From the NCBI GenBank assembly GCA_029855935.1, contig JAGSHN010000004.1, positions 118,022 through 182,021 on the forward strand: a stretch of 64,000 nucleotides of DNA, read 5' to 3'. The translations under genes and the position numbers were made by a program. This stretch comes from Candidatus Thorarchaeota archaeon (lineage in GTDB: Archaea; Asgardarchaeota; Thorarchaeia; Thorarchaeales; Thorarchaeaceae). This document shows, piece by piece, positions 42,682-51,887 of the stretch; position 1 is the stretch's first letter, and every line of letters starts with the position of its first letter. Below the pieces are notes generated by a model. It did no database searches. It saw only the letters and a program-made list of their open reading frames with translations, and had not been told where the DNA came from.

Positions 42682-42751
42682 GTGTTATGCGAATGTCAAG
42701 CCTTCCCAATGGAGCAATCACACCCGTCTCGGGCATAGTCCGTAATACGTG

Positions 42752-45121
42752 TCATACGCGCCCTGTGTGTTGTCGGCGAGCTGCTGCCGCAACGGCTTGC
42801 CCAAGGGAGATTCCGCCGTCTCCCGGAGGAATACGCCTATGAAGTAGCACTTGAACGTCACCATCTTGGGCAGTTTCGAACACGGCACGGGCAATGATCC
42901 TGTTTATTGCAGCACCCCCTGAGAGTCCCAGATAGGCTATGCCCTCATCAAGTGCTGCTTCCATGGCTATTGTCGTGAGCGCCTTGCCTAGGGCATACTG
43001 GGCCCCGAAGGCAAGGTGGGACTTGTTTACGCCTTCGTGCAAGAAACGTATTACATCCAGCAAGAATTCTCGTGTGTTGAGGACGGTACGTCCGTCCAGG
43101 GTCTTCTCGTATTGAGTGGGGATTGAAACTTCGTTGTCGACTGCTATGCTCTCCAACCGCATCGGACATTCTCCCTCATAGCTATTCTCTGAGCATACAC
43201 CCATTACAAATGCCACTGCATCAAGAAGACGTCCGATACTCGATGATTCGATGGTATTGATCCGGCGGCGAATCGATTCCGCCAAGAGGCTAAGTGTTTC
43301 GTCATTTGCCCTGGTATGTGGACCCAGCTTCGCATTTGCAAAGAGGCCCGAGTGCTCTTGGAGAGCGTCCAAACCTAGTATTCCCGCAGCCGCCCTAGCA
43401 GAGTATCTTGCCGAGAGATCCCCTCCCGGTAGGAGGGCGCCTGCGAGACCGCCGACGTTCCTGTACTCGGAAGCATTCCCTACGAGAACTTCCCCGCCCC
43501 AACCAGTCCCATCAGGTGCATAGCCATAGCCGTCGATGGTAATACATGCAATACGTGTATCTACGGGCAGATCGGAATCTGCAAGTAGAGATACAAGGTG
43601 CGCGTGATGGTGCTGAATCCCCACAAGCTCACTTCCGTGTTGGTGCGCTAGGTTTCTTGCAATGTCAGTGCTAAGGAACTCTGGGTGAAGGTCACAGGCC
43701 ACCACGTCAACGTCTTGAATCCCTACGAGCCGCGCGAGATGATAGAGTGCGCCTTCTAGGAATTGAGCGCTCTCTATATTGTCTGTGTTCCCAATATGCT
43801 GAGTGAGATATGCTCTCCGGTTGGTCAATACCGTGGCAGTGGCCTTTCTCTCTGGACCCGTGGCCAAAACCACCGACTTGGAGTCAATTCCGCGAACATC
43901 GATAGGATCAGGAACATATCCTCTCGCTCTTCTAATAAACTGCGGTCGCCCTTCGACGAACTTGACCACAGAGTCATCCACGCGTTGAGCAATTCTCCGG
44001 TTATGGACTAGGAACCCATCTGCAATTCCTTTGAGCCCCATGAGGATCTCTTTGGGTGTGACATACATTGGCAGACCGGAGGGGTTGGCGCTCGTCATGA
44101 CCAGAGCGGGTTCATCCGTTTCATCAAAGAGACATATGTGAATCCCCGAGTAGGGCAGCATGACACCTATTGTATCGAGATATGGCGATATCGCCTGAAG
44201 GGACTCGGTTGGTATTATAGGTATTACGCCTGATACGTCACGCTTGGATACAAGTACAATTGGTTTTTGCCACGCCTCGAGAAGGGAAACCTCCTCCTGG
44301 TGAACAGTTGCCATCTGTTGAAGCGTTGCTATGTCCCTGACCATTATCGCAAACGGTTGAGTCGGACGGTTCTTGCGTATCCGGAGTTCGTGAATCGGGG
44401 TGGCATCACTTGTCTTGGTGACAAGGTGAGTGCCACCGATACCCTGCACGGCGAGAATGGCCCCTCTATCAATTAACTCCGCAGCGGTCCTGATGGGATT
44501 ACTCGTCGACATTGCTTTCCCGTACTTGTTCAGGAGACGGTACCTTGGGCCGCAGCTCGGGCACGCGGTGGTCTGGGCGTGGTGTCTTCTGTTCGACGGA
44601 TCGTTGTATTCGGTTGCACACTCGGAACATAGGGGGAAGTCCACCATCGTAGTATTAGGTCTGTCATAGGGGAGTGCCGTTATTGTTGAGTAACGTGGTC
44701 CACAGGCTGCACATGACGTGAAAGGATACTTGTGCCACCGCGACTCAGGTACTCTTATGTCATCGATGCAGGCGTCGCATATGGATATGTCCGGGGGTAT
44801 CCTTGGGACCGCGGACCGGCTTCGTTTGGCGTCGGACATCCTAATCACGAACTCGGAGAACTTGCCAGTCGGACTGGCCCATCTGACATCCACCGAATCT
44901 ATTTTCGAGATGGAGGGTGGTTTCTGTGAAATTGTTCTTAGCAGCGCGTGAATTCGATCCTCTCTACCTTCCACCACTATTCTGACTCCAGCATCACCTA
45001 GGTTTAGTATATAGCCCCTGAGACCCAATGATGTTGCTGTCCGATAAACGAAGGGTCGGAAACCCACGCCCTGCACTATGCCAGTAATGTGAATCTCTGC
45101 TCGCTTAAGAGGAACGGACAT
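42752..45121 (-). CDS. hypF: Carbamoyltransferase HypF
   Basis: GIVQGVGFRPF, CxxC zinc fingers, QHHHAH, DG.GY..DG..WGGE, PPGDGGISLGQ. Confidence 0.95.
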   Translation of the reverse strand: MSVPLKRAEIHITGIVQGVGFRPFVYRTATSLGLRGYILNLGDAGVRIVVEGREDRIHALLRTISQKPPSISKIDSVDVRWASPTGKFSEFVIRMSDAKRSRSAVPRIPPDISICDACIDDIRVPESRWHKYPFTSCAACGPRYSTITALPYDRPNTTMVDFPLCSECATEYNDPSNRRHHAQTTACPSCGPRYRLLNKYGKAMSTSNPIRTAAELIDRGAILAVQGIGGTHLVTKTSDATPIHELRIRKNRPTQPFAIMVRDIATLQQMATVHQEEVSLLEAWQKPIVLVSKRDVSGVIPIIPTESLQAISPYLDTIGVMLPYSGIHICLFDETDEPALVMTSANPSGLPMYVTPKEILMGLKGIADGFLVHNRRIAQRVDDSVVKFVEGRPQFIRRARGYVPDPIDVRGIDSKSVVLATGPERKATATVLTNRRAYLTQHIGNTDNIESAQFLEGALYHLARLVGIQDVDVVACDLHPEFLSTDIARNLAHQHGSELVGIQHHHAHLVSLLADSDLPVDTRIACITIDGYGYAPDGTGWGGEVLVGNASEYRNVGGLAGALLPGGDLSARYSARAAAGILGLDALQEHSGLFANAKLGPHTRANDETLSLLAESIRRRINTIESSSIGRLLDAVAFVMGVCSENSYEGECPMRLESIAVDNEVSIPTQYEKTLDGRTVLNTREFLLDVIRFLHEGVNKSHLAFGAQYALGKALTTIAMEAALDEGIAYLGLSGGAAINRIIARAVFETAQDGDVQVLLHRRIPPGDGGISLGQAVAAAARRQHTGRV

Positions 45122-45475
45122 CGCAATACCAGCCGTTCCTTGACGTGATATTAATGCACTGAACTGGCAAAGTTGGTATGTGCTCTCTGTGATGGTTTCA
45201 TACACGTATATGCTGTAATACTAATATTACAGTAATCGGTGATTAAATACCTCGCCTAGTACGGGCTATTGGGTTGACATGTCTAGGCGAGTTGGCAGTT
45301 CAATCGGCAACTGTATTCCCGTGTACTCATCCAGTTGCCGCTTGTCTAGTGTCGCGAAATCCATGGCGAAACCACATGATCACGTGCATCTGCGTGAAGG
45401 AGAATGGATGGAAAGACTATGGCCCTCAGGCGGTAATGTACTACCGGAAGCTATGTGAATAGCGGGTGATGGAAG

Positions 45476-45901
45476 TTGTACGGTATCCGTAATCTCACCG
45501 ACGAACGAAGTGATATAGTGGTCACCGACTCTGTTCTCGCATACGTTCCGGATGTTCTGTGTGAGATGTTGGCCGAGGCAAGTACTGCCTCTTCACGCAG
45601 AAGGGCCGTTCTCGTGTCGAGCAACGCATTGGCAAACAGGTTCATCCTCCGGAGGTGGGGCATTCGTCCGGCTCAGAAGAAGCAATATCGAGAGGTATTC
45701 ATGGCCGTTCGTAGGCACTGTCGCAAACTCTTCAAACGTTATCTCTCGCGGGGAACTGTCACGTTTGATTCGTCTCCCGAACATGCTGTATGGGGAGTTT
45801 ATCAGTACGACTACGTCCGTGGAAATCTCATCCTAGCGTTTATACGTCGGTTGCCCGGTGAGGCCTTTCCACGTGGGCCACACGTTTCGTATTACGATTA
45901 G
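45476..45901 (+). CDS. Hypothetical basic protein
   Basis: 141-aa ORF filling the gap; no recognised motif. Confidence 0.55.
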   Translation: MYGIRNLTDERSDIVVTDSVLAYVPDVLCEMLAEASTASSRRRAVLVSSNALANRFILRRWGIRPAQKKQYREVFMAVRRHCRKLFKRYLSRGTVTFDSSPEHAVWGVYQYDYVRGNLILAFIRRLPGEAFPRGPHVSYYD

Positions 45902-50582: not shown

Positions 50583-51239
50583 GTGCGAGGGATATCATTG
50601 AGCAAGGTTCTTCCAGGAACAAAGGCAACGCGAATGGAGCTTCTTCGACTTAAGAACAGGACCAAGCTGGCTGAGCGTGGCCACGATCTCCTAAAGGAAA
50701 AACGGGACTCACTGATCATGGAATTCTTCAATACAATTGCCGAGATGAAGGAGATTCGTCAGCAGGTTGAAAGCGCCCTTGCCGAGGCATTCTCTTCACT
50801 CACCCAGGCCAAGATGATAATGGGGCCCGCACGTGTCATAGAGTTCGCGTATTCTAGTCAGGTTGAAACGCGTCTCGAAACAACCACGCGCTCAATGATG
50901 GGTGTTAGAGTTCCAGTGATGTCACTTCAGCAGGATGTACCTGAGCTTCCGTATTCATTGCCCGATTCGAGTGTCAAGCTTGATATTATGACCTCGAAAT
51001 TTGTGGAGGCCCTACGTGCTATAGTTCGCTTGGCTGAGGTGGAATCGACAGTTCGAAGATTGGCGCTTGAGATCGAGAGAACAAAGCGAAGAGTGTCAGC
51101 CCTTGAGGCGGTTGTGATTCCGCGGCTCGAAGCAACTGTTCGGTTTATCAAGCTGGCCTTGGAAGAGCGGGAGCGGGAGGACTTCTATCGTATAAAGCTC
51201 GTAAAGTCACGAATCTCAGAGCGCCAAGATGCCGAGTAG
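50583..51239 (+). CDS. atpD: A/V-type ATP synthase subunit D
   Basis: TRMELL.LK...A.RGH.LLK.KRD.L, MGV.VP, EI..TKRRV.ALE..VIP, EREREDF. Confidence 0.93.
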   Translation: MRGISLSKVLPGTKATRMELLRLKNRTKLAERGHDLLKEKRDSLIMEFFNTIAEMKEIRQQVESALAEAFSSLTQAKMIMGPARVIEFAYSSQVETRLETTTRSMMGVRVPVMSLQQDVPELPYSLPDSSVKLDIMTSKFVEALRAIVRLAEVESTVRRLALEIERTKRRVSALEAVVIPRLEATVRFIKLALEEREREDFYRIKLVKSRISERQDAE

Positions 51240-51283
51240 CAGTGCACCATTTCTGTAGTGTCCGCCTAGTCAAACAAGGTTCT

Positions 51284-51664
51284 CTATCTATGCTTGAGTT
51301 TAAGAATGGCCGCTGCCAAGTCTCCCTCTGTTTCACGTAGCGCCTGCATTGCCTCCTCAATACTGGCTCCGGTCTGCTGTGCTACGAGTGCAGCATCCTC
51401 TACGGGAATCTCCATGCCCGGTGTCTGCTTCTCTTCTCTCTCCTCCGGTTCTCCTCTAATCGCTCTCTCCCTTTTCTCGCCCGTGACTTGGTACGACTCG
51501 ACTCCTGCCTGCCGAATCAGCATCACTTGAGGCCTAGTCACGACCCATTCTCGATCTTTGAATCTAAAGATGACCTCCTCGACGCCAGTAACCTCCTTCT
51601 GCTCTATTCCCATCTTTTTCATGAGCCGCGCAATCTGTCTTGGTGACATCCTTCTTGATCCCAT
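51284..51664 (-). CDS. nac: Nascent polypeptide-associated complex protein
   Basis: PRQ..R.MKKMGI, YQV.G, UBA-like ED..LVAQQTG..GDLAAAI. Confidence 0.92.
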   Translation of the reverse strand: MGSRRMSPRQIARLMKKMGIEQKEVTGVEEVIFRFKDREWVVTRPQVMLIRQAGVESYQVTGEKRERAIRGEPEEREEKQTPGMEIPVEDAALVAQQTGASIEEAMQALRETEGDLAAAILKLKHR

Positions 51665-51887
51665 TCAACCACCTGCCCCACTCGACCACCAGTTTCAATA
51701 AAAAACCTGCCGCAAGGACAGTGAGATGGTTTTTCGTTTCGCGTTCGGGAGTGGAGGAAACTCCTGCGCGTAGGACCTGTTGACCTAGCTCGGGTAGATG
51801 TGGGGTGGGTGCCAGTGAAGTGGGTGAAATGCGTATTACCAGTATTACGGCCACTGAAATTATCGAGGGACTTATTTCAGCTTCTAT

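Follow-up and report, generated by a model that had tools for sequence, protein, structure and literature searches.

Features of the Locus

The window, a 64,000-nt stretch of a contig from a Candidatus Thorarchaeota archaeon to which all coordinates refer, contained an oriC-like element, an operon that encodes an AAA+ ATPase and a small RHH-like protein, and a conserved gene, u173:

39880..40088, no strand: oriC-like element, two inverted ORB boxes around an AT-rich tract
46107..46628, plus strand: u173, conserved 173-aa protein with a possible HTH, third partner in the module and the best conserved one across Asgard families
48739..49044, minus strand: small tailed RHH-like protein (101 aa), starting directly after the ATPase stop
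49045..50019, minus strand: AAA+ ATPase (324 aa), Pfam AAA_22

The ORB cores of the oriC-like element were located at 39924 (minus strand) and 40047 (plus strand), and a copy of AGAACACGTGTTCT lay on either side of the element. A third ORB was found at 36833. The pattern TCCA[CG]NNGAA[AG]N1-7GGGG occurred four times in the genome, including three times at the present locus, and a canonical Orc1/Cdc6 gene was situated 16 kb away. Equivalent ORBs were retained in all of the family loci, and they also accompany the module in distant Asgard families.

Paired GTAWTAC Heptamers

The 2.97-Mb genome contained 72 exact GTAWTAC heptamers, whereas an order-3 Markov model predicts approximately 60 (approximately 0.2 per 10 kb). 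The window harbored 19 of these, including 15 within positions 42074-51842 (window 42-52 kb). The array starts at the canonical ORB-type oriC (window 39.9-40.1 kb); its sites and the weak outliers are as follows:

29143 and 38676: tandem sites with two mismatches, weak outliers on the opposite side of oriC
39540..39546: single exact heptamer, weak outlier on the opposite side of oriC
42065..42080: tandem CTGATAC-GA-GTAATAC with two mismatches, spanning the POR alpha/beta stop and the POR gamma start
42742..42757: tandem GTAATAC-GT-GTCATAC, in the gap where POR gamma and hypF converge
43048..43054: lone exact heptamer in hypF; its sole partner, at 43039, is weak
43539..43554: tandem GTAATAC-AT-GCAATAC in hypF, with synonymous constraint at the site
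44212..44236: three-unit GTATTAT-AG-GTATTAC-GC-CTGATAC in hypF (HypF columns 1017-1029)
45215..45230: tandem GTAATAC-TA-ATATTAC, immediately upstream of hypF
45889..45895: lone exact heptamer where the conserved gene u141 ends
46631..46646: tandem GTATTAC-GT-GTCTTAC, 3 nt past the u173 stop
47058..47073: tandem GTAATAC-TC-ATCATAC, upstream of an acdA-like gene
48026..48050: three-unit site in the acdA-like gene, GGT ATT ATC AGT AAT ACA (G-I-I-S-N-T)
48607..48631: two exact heptamers 18 bp apart, middle unit absent, downstream of the acdA-like gene and the operon
50052..50067: GTAGTGC-AC-GTAATAC, 33-48 nt upstream of the ATPase start, likely an autoregulatory operator
51833..51848: perfect tandem GTATTAC-CA-GTATTAC between the PAN and NAC genes, the sole perfect one genome-wide
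59842..59857: outlying tandem CTATTAC-GA-GTATTAC in gene 59507-61546, encoding Y-Y-E-Y-Y

The GTAWTAC unit is a palindrome with a free center, and each unit is two-fold symmetric. The central W positions of exact pairs were TT in six cases, AA in three, TA in three, and AT in two, with no orientation bias, and the mismatches of partner heptamers were concentrated on the outer G and C. The first-pass annotation had reported partners exactly 9 bp apart, within hypF and acdA as well as in intergenic gaps; every position that it listed carries the letters it gave, and the register proved stronger than claimed. When exact heptamers were scanned genome-wide for partners with at most one mismatch at offsets 1-60, offsets 9 (nine counts) and 18 (two counts) alone stood out, and all others yielded 0-1 counts each. 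All eight heptamer-NN-heptamer tandems in the 2.97 Mb with at most one mismatch in total fell within window positions 42742-59857, and 14 of the 15 with at most two mismatches fell within 29143-59857. The 9-bp excess persisted under codon-preserving shuffles, with four in-gene tandems observed against a mean of 0.086 and a maximum of 2 in 500 synonymous-codon shuffles; control offsets of 6, 12, and 15 gave no in-gene tandems. It also remained when intergenic copies were considered separately (three tandems in 3253 nt vs. a shuffle mean of 0.002).

The same register was observed for 204 exact heptamers from 10 family genomes, including the present one. Partners with at most one mismatch were located at -9 in 69 cases, at +9 in 63, and at +18 and -18 in 12 each, whereas those at +27 or -27 numbered 0-1 and the few other offsets reaching the reporting threshold 0-3. 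Sites mostly consisted of two units and occasionally of three. The offset counts of this genome and of the family gave no statistical support for arrays of more than three units; the three- and four-unit arrays proposed previously were mostly one good pair with chance neighbors. The third and fourth units at 45197/45206, 51815/51824, 50043, and 47076 carried 2-4 mismatches. Sites were spaced more evenly than at random (CV 0.41-0.60), with few gaps of less than 300 bp.

Conservation among Thorarchaeota

The array was conserved in every Thorarchaeota genus sampled, with 12-17 sites approximately 800 bp apart at conserved places, and one cluster per genome was found where match positions were listed (G003 and G018 in the family search). 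In all nine fetched family loci, with a GC content of 42-53%, the cluster surrounded the ATPase-small protein operon, which forms the middle of the array. The paired heptamers are unique to this cluster, keep a fixed register, are conserved, and are coupled to oriC and the operon. In several family loci, a heptamer site was located within approximately 100 bp of an ORB.

Synonymous codon identity among eight other genera was 0.78 at sites, as defined in the present genome, vs. 0.40 elsewhere (p = 1.5e-9). At the acdA-like site (alignment column 922), the exact heptamer was present in 10/10 family genomes, and synonymous codon identity was 0.78 vs. 0.39 in the remainder of the gene. The outgroup sequence here was GCA ATT ATA ACG AAT GCA (A-I-I-T-N-A), and the codons that differed between the two proteins were exactly the three that supply the GT, GT, and AC of the motif. 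The position of the 59842 site was retained in nine family genomes, with a synonymous codon identity of 0.97 vs. 0.39. Exact heptamers occurred at HypF columns 1684-1708 in all nine family genomes in which HypF was found, and at the POR gamma start (columns 4-19) in this genome and 7/9 other family genomes. The lone heptamer at 43048 (HypF column 2208) was found in the present genome only. Furthermore, coordinate comparison with G003 and G016 revealed exact heptamers in the POR gamma/hypF gap, immediately upstream of the hypF start, within approximately 45 bp past the u173 stop, and approximately 45 bp upstream of the ATPase start. In the sister family G025, GTAWTAC pairs were not found; its operon instead had a different clustered palindrome, and the strand of its small protein also differed.

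The two-fold unit, fixed 9-bp spacing, conserved sites, even spacing, and restriction around the ATPase-small protein operon together support a site-specific, symmetric, cooperative binder with a structural rather than purely operator role. The earlier suggestion of structural loading sites rather than ordinary operators was partly supported.

The ATPase and the Small RHH-Like Protein

The 324-aa ATPase was AAA_22/ExeA-like by sequence and Orc1/Cdc6-like by fold, as predicted by AlphaFold2 (pLDDT 87). It retained the Walker A, Walker B, sensor 1, Arg, and sensor 2 motifs, and full-length Thorarchaeota homologs shared 76-92% identity. The best Foldseek matches were archaeal Orc1/Cdc6 (E-values of 2e-9 to 1e-7), eukaryotic ORC/Cdc6, and TnsC. 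These fold relatives of the modeled structure would indicate replication or DNA loading as much as segregation.

The 101-aa protein contained a conserved N-terminal MSLLGKYRKE, a disordered linker rich in K, E, and T, and a C-terminal RHH-like domain (AlphaFold2 pLDDT 83-90 for residues 60-100). It showed weak structural matches to SegB (Z of 3.3, rmsd of 2.1 Å over 45 residues) and omega; VIA-align gave Z values of 3.2-3.3, amid many unrelated entries. An ESM lead pointed to RHH_10, whereas searches with this protein returned no Pfam RHH match and no Foldseek match. The fold is probably RHH, as these weak matches to the model suggest. The strand SPI(V/M)SFS was near-invariant in the family, with one V-to-M change, as was the motif. 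The protein is a candidate reader of the heptamers. The fixed 9 bp and the symmetric unit agree with the side-by-side RHH dimers that the first-pass annotation had envisaged, although we infer that the RHH-like protein is the binder.

The Module in Distant Asgard Families

The same module was present beside ORBs in the distant Asgard family f19 (G060), in which 31 GATATC were found in 20 kb in a 13-bp register. All six genome copies of GATATC-N7-GATATC were located within 11.4 kb around the module. The motif thus varies with the small protein. u173, which gave no match in a Pfam search, was found beside the module in f3, f7, and f19, and shared 34% identity (E-value of 1e-36) with the module neighbor in f19. 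It was conserved between lineages despite their different motifs, whereas the small protein was not alignable, which suggests that the small protein determines specificity. On the other hand, the putative strand was nearly identical between f7 and f19, yet their motifs were GTTAAC and GATATC, respectively. No clear array was detected by simple word counts at the Odin-like (f3) and f21 loci.

Comparison with Known Systems

Among the closest systems is SegAB, which acts in Sulfolobus chromosome segregation. SegB consists of a tail and an RHH domain, and the tail stimulates its ATPase (PMC8682754). Its site segS is a 7-bp triple repeat, [AGNGTNN]x3 (PMC12139799). Both systems are archaeal and chromosomal, with an operon order of ATPase followed by a small RHH or RHH-like protein with a disordered N-terminal tail, and short phased cis repeats adjoin the operon. 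In SegAB, multiple dimers form a higher-order complex, as is also predicted here. However, SegA is a ParA-type Walker ATPase, whereas the present one is an Orc/Cdc6-like AAA+ protein; a partition mechanism by analogy is thus uncertain, because the ATPase is not a ParA-type motor. Furthermore, the repeat period is 7 bp in segS and 9 bp here, and segS comprises one main site and scattered partial motifs 166 kb from an origin instead of 12-17 even sites from oriC onward. No sequence similarity to SegAB was detectable, only the weak structural match of the 101-aa protein.

Dimers of the RHH protein omega (pSM19035, with the delta ATPase) bind contiguous 7-bp heptads cooperatively (PDB 2bnw). In omega/delta and in type Ib plasmid partition by ParG/ParF, one set of sites acts as both centromere and operator, and a flexible N-terminal tail acts on the ATPase. 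Cooperative RHH dimers on short repeats and a tail directed to an ATPase are also proposed here, but those systems use single plasmid blocks of 7-10 contiguous repeats and an ATPase of another superfamily, whereas most of the present sites are pairs that lie scattered across >10 kb of chromosome, including positions within genes. The metboxes of MetJ are tandem 8-bp palindromes that each bind one RHH dimer. A fixed center-to-center distance that sets cooperativity is proposed here as well, but MetJ is a co-repressor-dependent transcription factor of promoter operators only, without an ATPase partner or origin link.

Bacterial parS clusters near oriC (ParABS) likewise comprise several copies of one palindrome that are origin-proximal only, often in genes, and conserved over wide taxa. 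However, their reader is the HTH CTPase ParB, which recognizes parS as a 16-bp inverted repeat and spreads along DNA. No ParB or ParA genes are encoded at the present locus. ParA/MinD-like genes are present elsewhere in the genome. Archaeal Orc1/Cdc6 and the present ATPase have the AAA+ base and lid fold in common and the array abuts true ORBs, but the winged helix is missing here and ORBs do not resemble the heptamers.

Possible Functions of the Array

The array is interpreted as a centromere-like docking array that flanks the origin and that RHH dimers would read, with binding and function predicted (probability of approximately 0.55). A role in replication control rather than segregation is rather unlikely, although the Orc-like folds and the DNA-bound loader TnsC among the best matches of the ATPase, the sites that abut ORBs in several genera, and the nearby Orc1/Cdc6 gene argue for it. 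From the array, to which the RHH protein would then tether it, the ATPase would act on oriC (remodeling or licensing), on the helicase (loading or restraint), or by titration of an initiator, similar to DnaA-box clusters or initiator-accessory platforms. ORB pairs 1-7 kb from the module in all six distant loci and PolD-DP1-like genes adjoining it in two families (by eye, from N-terminal sequence only) agree with this role. However, known archaeal origins are compact (<1 kb), and an even array of 10-16 kb with in-gene sites would be superfluous for one duplex-unwinding element. Moreover, the ATPase scored 14.6 bits against the Orc1/Cdc6 family, far under the cut-off of 181 bits, and has no winged helix.

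Approximately half of the sites are promoter or intergenic, including the one upstream of the operon, and RHH proteins are usually repressors, which would suit an ordinary regulon of a local repressor over POR, hypF, the acdA-like gene, atpD, NAC, and PAN. This is improbable: conserved sites lie where convergent genes end and deep in hypF, the acdA-like gene, POR, and the 59507 gene, the spacing is even, and the flanking genes have no common pathway; the cluster is also unique in the genome and linked to oriC in lineages with differing neighbor genes. Little credence is given to a real array with another reader, in which the RHH protein would merely be an autoregulator. u173, the most conserved module partner, has an HTH-like stretch, but this stretch hardly varies among lineages whose motifs differ. 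The family-restricted u141 was present in the GTAWTAC family and not found in G025, which is without GTAWTAC, but the f19 array has no u141 homolog nearby. An HTH dimer also suits a 7-bp palindrome with a 5-bp core less well than an RHH ribbon does, judging from the known Arc, MetJ, CopG, and omega complexes.

In the favored docking array, the paired heptamers would be protein-binding sites under purifying selection, with one origin-flanking array per chromosome. Each palindrome would take one dimer of the 101-aa protein, with its beta-ribbon inserted into one major groove, and at the 9-bp center-to-center spacing two, at times three, dimers would touch and bind cooperatively, as do omega on its 7-bp heptads, MetJ on its 8-bp metboxes, and SegB on the 7-bp segS repeats. 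The conserved N-terminal peptide may recruit or stimulate the co-transcribed ATPase, which lacks its own DNA-binding domain. The site upstream of the operon would double as an autoregulatory element. The binding protein, its cooperativity, the ATPase link, and the cellular function are predictions, according to which 12-17 sites from oriC onward would form a large nucleoprotein domain that, like a centromere, marks, organizes, or segregates the origin region just after its replication. The array most likely docks a small DNA-binding protein and its Orc-like ATPase, which would represent an undescribed chromosome-handling system.

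A paired heptamer in a 9-bp register

The heptamer GTAWTAC (GTAATAC or its complement, GTATTAC) is a 7-bp palindrome in which only the central A/T is free. The window contained 19 copies, including 15 between 42074 and 51842, and the 2.97-Mb assembly (32 contigs) contained 72, with at most three in any other 10-kb stretch. The expectation of an order-3 Markov model was approximately 60 copies genome-wide and approximately 0.2 per 10 kb locally; therefore, the word is not avoided elsewhere in the genome. Avoidance outside the array was accordingly rejected, and the shortfall against base composition was assigned to ordinary oligonucleotide bias.

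Across the whole genome, partners with no more than one mismatch occurred more than once only at offsets of 9 bp (n = 9) and 18 bp (n = 2), and the remaining offsets to 60 bp yielded none or one. Allowing one mismatch in total, the pair heptamer-NN-heptamer was found eight times in the genome, all within window positions 42742-59857; allowing two mismatches, 14 of 15 genomic matches were inside 29143-59857. The control pattern, read backwards, had three matches in this genome. The first-pass annotation had described heptamers phased by 9 bp inside and between genes, and its letters were present at every coordinate that it named. Its four-unit arrays were not supported, as the extra units at 45197/45206, 51815/51824, 50043, and 47076 carried two to four mismatches.

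The proposed 9-bp excess persisted when the genes of 40-61.5 kb were shuffled with protein sequence and codon usage preserved (four in-gene tandems, against a mean of 0.086 and a maximum of 2 in 500 shuffles), and control offsets of 6, 12, and 15 gave no in-gene tandems in these genes. The excess also persisted in intergenic DNA alone, which contained three tandems in 3253 nt, against a mean of 0.002. Since the shuffle tests were beaten in each compartment, the excess is present in coding and intergenic DNA alike. Chance or a codon artefact was ruled out by the genome-wide count, the control offsets, and the synonymous-codon and intergenic shuffles.

For the 204 exact heptamers of ten same-family genomes, this one included, partners differing at no more than one position were counted by offset: 69 lay at -9, 63 at +9, and 12 each at +18 and -18. 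Offsets of +27 and -27 yielded 0-1, and the remaining offsets at or above the print threshold yielded 0-3. Heptamers come as pairs by rule, and 81% of the 204 had a partner with up to two mismatches on at least one side. The central bases of exact pairs were TT (6), AA (3), TA (3), or AT (2). Because partner mismatches were mainly located on the outer G and C, the core is TAWTA, and the heptamer was preferably preceded by TT and followed by AA. As in phased operator arrays of ribbon-helix-helix (RHH) proteins, symmetric units were repeated at a fixed period, which was exclusively 9 bp and showed no orientation bias.

Gene setting and the predicted origin

The window, C17:118022-182021 of the assembly, comes from a Thorarchaeota (Asgard) archaeon, to judge by the names attached to near-identical homologues. 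The array and its surroundings contain the following features.

Features of the window (positions in the window; strand where assigned)
23193-24419, Orc1/Cdc6 gene
40160-42681, plus strand, subunits of pyruvate:ferredoxin oxidoreductase (POR)
42752-45205, minus strand, hypF
45476-45901, plus strand, u141, conserved gene of unknown function
46107-46628, plus strand, u173, conserved gene of unknown function
47125-48516, plus strand, acdA-like gene, ADP-forming acyl-CoA synthetase alpha
48739-49044, minus strand, 101-aa protein, directly after the ATPase gene
49045-50019, minus strand, 324-aa AAA_22 ATPase
from 50583, atpD, NAC, PAN, aMBF1, and TFE-alpha

The element at 39880-40088 has the sequence layout of a textbook archaeal origin and is the predicted oriC. 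It comprises two inverted origin recognition boxes (ORBs) around an AT-rich tract, and two AGAACACGTGTTCT copies bracket the whole. Three of the four genomic matches to the ORB pattern TCCA[CG]NNGAA[AG]N1-7GGGG were located here (36833, 39924, and 40047), and the sister family has the same ORB layout upstream of POR. GC skew changed from positive values to negative ones near 47 kb, and the sign changes of GC skew and AT skew were located between 27 and 47 kb of the window. Along the contig (from 118 kb before the window to its 64 kb), GC content dropped steadily from approximately 56% to approximately 51% towards the origin region, where the contig reached its lowest levels. Given the position of the ORB element, the array starts approximately 2 kb from the predicted oriC and extends mainly to one side of it.

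Conservation across the family

The tandem pattern was searched for in 40 relatives. It was present in all 24 members of the window's family, in most cases far above the backwards control, and did not exceed this control in the other Asgard families of that set. Nine family genomes, which represent eight genera and include a second member of the window's genus, contained 17-28 exact heptamers and 6-16 tandems in the 40 kb surrounding the ATPase gene, at a locus GC of 42-53%. Array cores contained 12-17 sites per 10-16 kb, the gaps between them having a median of 793 bp and a CV of 0.41-0.60, with few below 300 bp; the sites are spaced more evenly than random, in genomes that are related, such that the tests are not independent. 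The relative G017 (91% complete) was the only family genome in which no ATPase was found, and it contained a single tandem match, which is the control level. This could reflect the joint absence of ATPase and array or an unassembled locus.

The gene order POR-hypF-u141-u173-acdA-RHH-ATPase-u108-atpD-NAC-PAN-aMBF1-TFE was kept throughout the family loci, with protein identities down to 40-80%. Synteny over approximately 25 kb (window 40160-61546; loci L001-L018) in at least eight genera is unusual for genes that are functionally unrelated.

The sites themselves occupied homologous positions; for example, all ten family genomes had one at column 922 of the acdA-like gene, and others recurred at three places in hypF, at the start of POR gamma, and in the gene at 59507. 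Comparison of coordinates with two relatives, G003 and G016, also revealed shared sites in the gaps that follow POR gamma and u173, and upstream of the hypF, acdA-like, and ATPase genes. Conservation at synonymous sites, which had been named as a check on the in-gene copies, was observed: codon identity in eight other genera was 0.78 at the sites and 0.40 elsewhere (Mann-Whitney p 1.5e-9); the site positions were taken from this genome alone, and the scores came from the other genera.

The site in the acdA-like gene (48035-48050) was spelled GGT ATT ATY AGT AAT ACN (G-I-I-S-N-T) in the whole family, whereas the outgroup from the sister family had GCA ATT ATA ACG AAT GCA (A-I-I-T-N-A). The three differing codons coincide exactly with those that give the GT, GT, and AC of the motif; therefore, the protein sequence may have been shaped by the DNA site. 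The site at 59842-59857, in the gene at 59507-61546, encodes Tyr-Tyr-Glu-Tyr-Tyr with the codons TAT TAC GAG TAT TAC, a pattern that was kept in nine of ten family genomes; in G003 the second Tyr pair was TAC TAT.

The ATPase and the 101-aa protein

The ATPase retained Walker A, Walker B, sensor 1, arginine, and GxPR sensor 2 motifs, and was 76-92% identical among full-length Thorarchaeota homologues. It belongs to AAA_22 by Pfam, is Orc/Cdc6/TnsC-like by fold, and is not of the ParA type (deviant Walker A); ParA/MinD-like genes were located on other contigs of the genome. The best Foldseek matches of its AlphaFold2 model (pLDDT 87) were archaeal Orc1/Cdc6 structures (1w5t, 1w5s, 1fnn, and 2qby; E 2e-9 to 1e-7), with eukaryotic ORC/Cdc6 and TnsC next; the top matches had TM of 0.43-0.55, with TnsC, RFC, RuvB, and Clp close behind. 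The 324-aa protein has no winged-helix domain, its model ending in lid helices, and it scored 14.6 bits against the Orc1/Cdc6 family TIGR02928, below the cut-off of 181 bits. True Orc1/Cdc6 genes are present elsewhere. An exhaustive profile search yielded ten cluster representatives below E 1e-30 and then the broad AAA_22 superfamily, which, going by JGI names, we take to be ExeA-like.

The N-terminus of the 101-aa protein carries an invariant peptide (M..LGKYR). A charged, disordered linker (pLDDT <50) follows, and then a folded C-terminal domain, in which the strand SPI(V/M)SFS is near-invariant within the family, with a single V-to-M change. As in the SegAB (type Ib) layout, a small tailed protein is encoded by a gene that starts directly after the ATPase stop. 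Its AlphaFold2 monomer consists of an extended segment and two to three helices, including 57-72 and 76-91, with pLDDT of 83-90. None of 11 orthologues matched Pfam RHH families at E up to 10, NCBIfam searches retrieved nothing, a PDB profile search retrieved nothing relevant, and Foldseek with the whole model gave no matches. VIA-align matched SegB (7duv) with Z 3.3 and rmsd of 2.1 Å over 45 residues, a score that unrelated rows equalled; the RHH rows (SegB, omega 2bnw/1irq, PutA, CopA(SO), TacA, and ParD2) had Z of 2.8-3.3 and low rmsd among unrelated rows that scored alike. ESM features pointed weakly, at 0.90, to a cluster with RHH_10 on 21% of its members. An RHH fold is a tentative prediction, with moderate support at most.

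Covariation of motif and module in other Asgard lineages

In the sister family (genome G025), the ATPase was 67% identical, the putative DNA-reading strand of the small protein was VIFTCSI, which differs from that of the window's family, and the locus contained no GTAWTAC pairs. Four of the six genomic copies of a 12-bp palindrome, AATAAATTTATT, were located within 4.5 kb at the operon (L019/L020, G025:C13:19801-59800). A 9-bp hexamer register, AAATTT-N3-AAATTT, was considered for this genome and rejected, as only AATAAATTTATT was clustered.

Distant Asgard families, including one with Odinarchaeota labels (f3), contained an ATPase of 24-30% identity and, after it, a small protein whose C-terminus is RHH-like. 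Homologues of u173 were located beside the module in families f3, f7, and f19 (34% identity and E 1e-36 between the window's family and f19), hypF or PolD-DP1-like genes were often nearby, and canonical ORBs were present 1-7 kb from the module in all six distant loci. The closed 3.58-Mb genome G060 (f19) harbored 31 copies of GATATC in 20 kb around the module beside ORBs (L021, G060:C1:1632001-1652000), grouped by twos and threes in a 13-bp register, and the six GATATC-N7-GATATC copies of the genome all fell within 11.4 kb around the module. In f7, GTTAAC was enriched 2-4 fold near the ORB, and in the f3 (Odin-like) and f21 loci simple word counts revealed no clear array. The small proteins of the window's family and f19 could not be aligned, in contrast to the well-conserved u173; it is therefore the small protein, and not u173, that the motif follows.

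Conservation of u173 between distant Asgard families exceeded that of the ATPase. Its stretch GVSRGAFNRTLAQARRNV (gene 46107-46628) resembles an HTH recognition helix, and ESM features placed it near look-alike clusters labelled Bathyarchaeota.

Interpretation of the array

In the Arc, MetJ, CopG, and omega complexes, one RHH dimer occupies a single major groove, and a 7-bp palindrome with a 5-bp core corresponds to this footprint; cooperativity between such units is achieved through a fixed centre-to-centre distance (7 bp in omega, PDB 2bnw, and 8 bp in MetJ). SegB binds segS cooperatively at fixed-distance units, [AGNGTNN]x3 (PMC12139799), and the N-terminal tails of SegB and ParG stimulate their ATPases (PMC8682754). 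The tail and RHH build of SegB and ParG, and the gene order of ATPase and then small protein, are matched by the module described here; the pairs may therefore be read as cooperative dimer-of-dimers sites of the RHH-like protein. In type Ib/SegAB-like systems, iterated short repeats at or near the operon act as the centromere; the repeats of this locus are present, unique, and conserved, and would be a candidate centromere. In the proposed mechanism, the paired heptamers would bind two RHH-like dimers cooperatively, the RHH-like protein would bring in the Orc-like ATPase, and the whole array would form an origin-flanking nucleoprotein domain.

We prefer a centromere-like domain that would serve segregation; the alternative is a domain for replication control, and sequence does not decide between the two. 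An ordinary transcription regulon is unlikely because the sites are evenly spaced and in part lie inside genes, and because the array is unique and linked to the origin. The TnsC-like ATPase could recall a mobile element or transposon module; this was rejected on account of the approximately 25 kb of housekeeping gene order conserved across genera, and no transposase was found among the annotated neighbouring genes. A broader proposal is that several Asgard lineages possess an undescribed, origin-coupled chromosome machine, in which an Orc/Cdc6-like AAA+ ATPase without a DNA-binding domain would be targeted by a fast-evolving tailed RHH adaptor and the conserved u173 to a regularly spaced, lineage-specific array of phased palindromes running from oriC. 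We hold this tentatively, at a probability of roughly 0.4.

Novelty and significance

Phased short repeats for RHH proteins are of a known kind. The new features are the 9-bp register; the dispersed, gene-embedded, and evenly spaced array that starts at the predicted oriC; the Orc/Cdc6-like AAA+ partner ATPase in place of ParA; and the recurrence of the module in other Asgard lineages with motif and period changed. A literature search for Asgard archaea retrieved no description of the module or motif. Asgard archaea are the closest known relatives of eukaryotes, and to our knowledge their chromosome organisation and segregation are essentially unknown.

As a cis element open to testing, the locus offers a 16-bp pair in strict 9-bp register. 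It supplies candidate trans factors as well, and a set of lineages for comparison whose motif and period change along with the small protein. It also provides a case of coding sequence constrained by a DNA motif across a long span of evolution: the acdA-like gene, hypF, and one further gene show this at synonymous sites and in codon and perhaps residue choices. If the ATPase indeed works with the RHH adaptor at the origin, the two would represent a motor and a centromere-binding protein in a new combination, or could alternatively be a new kind of initiator accessory.
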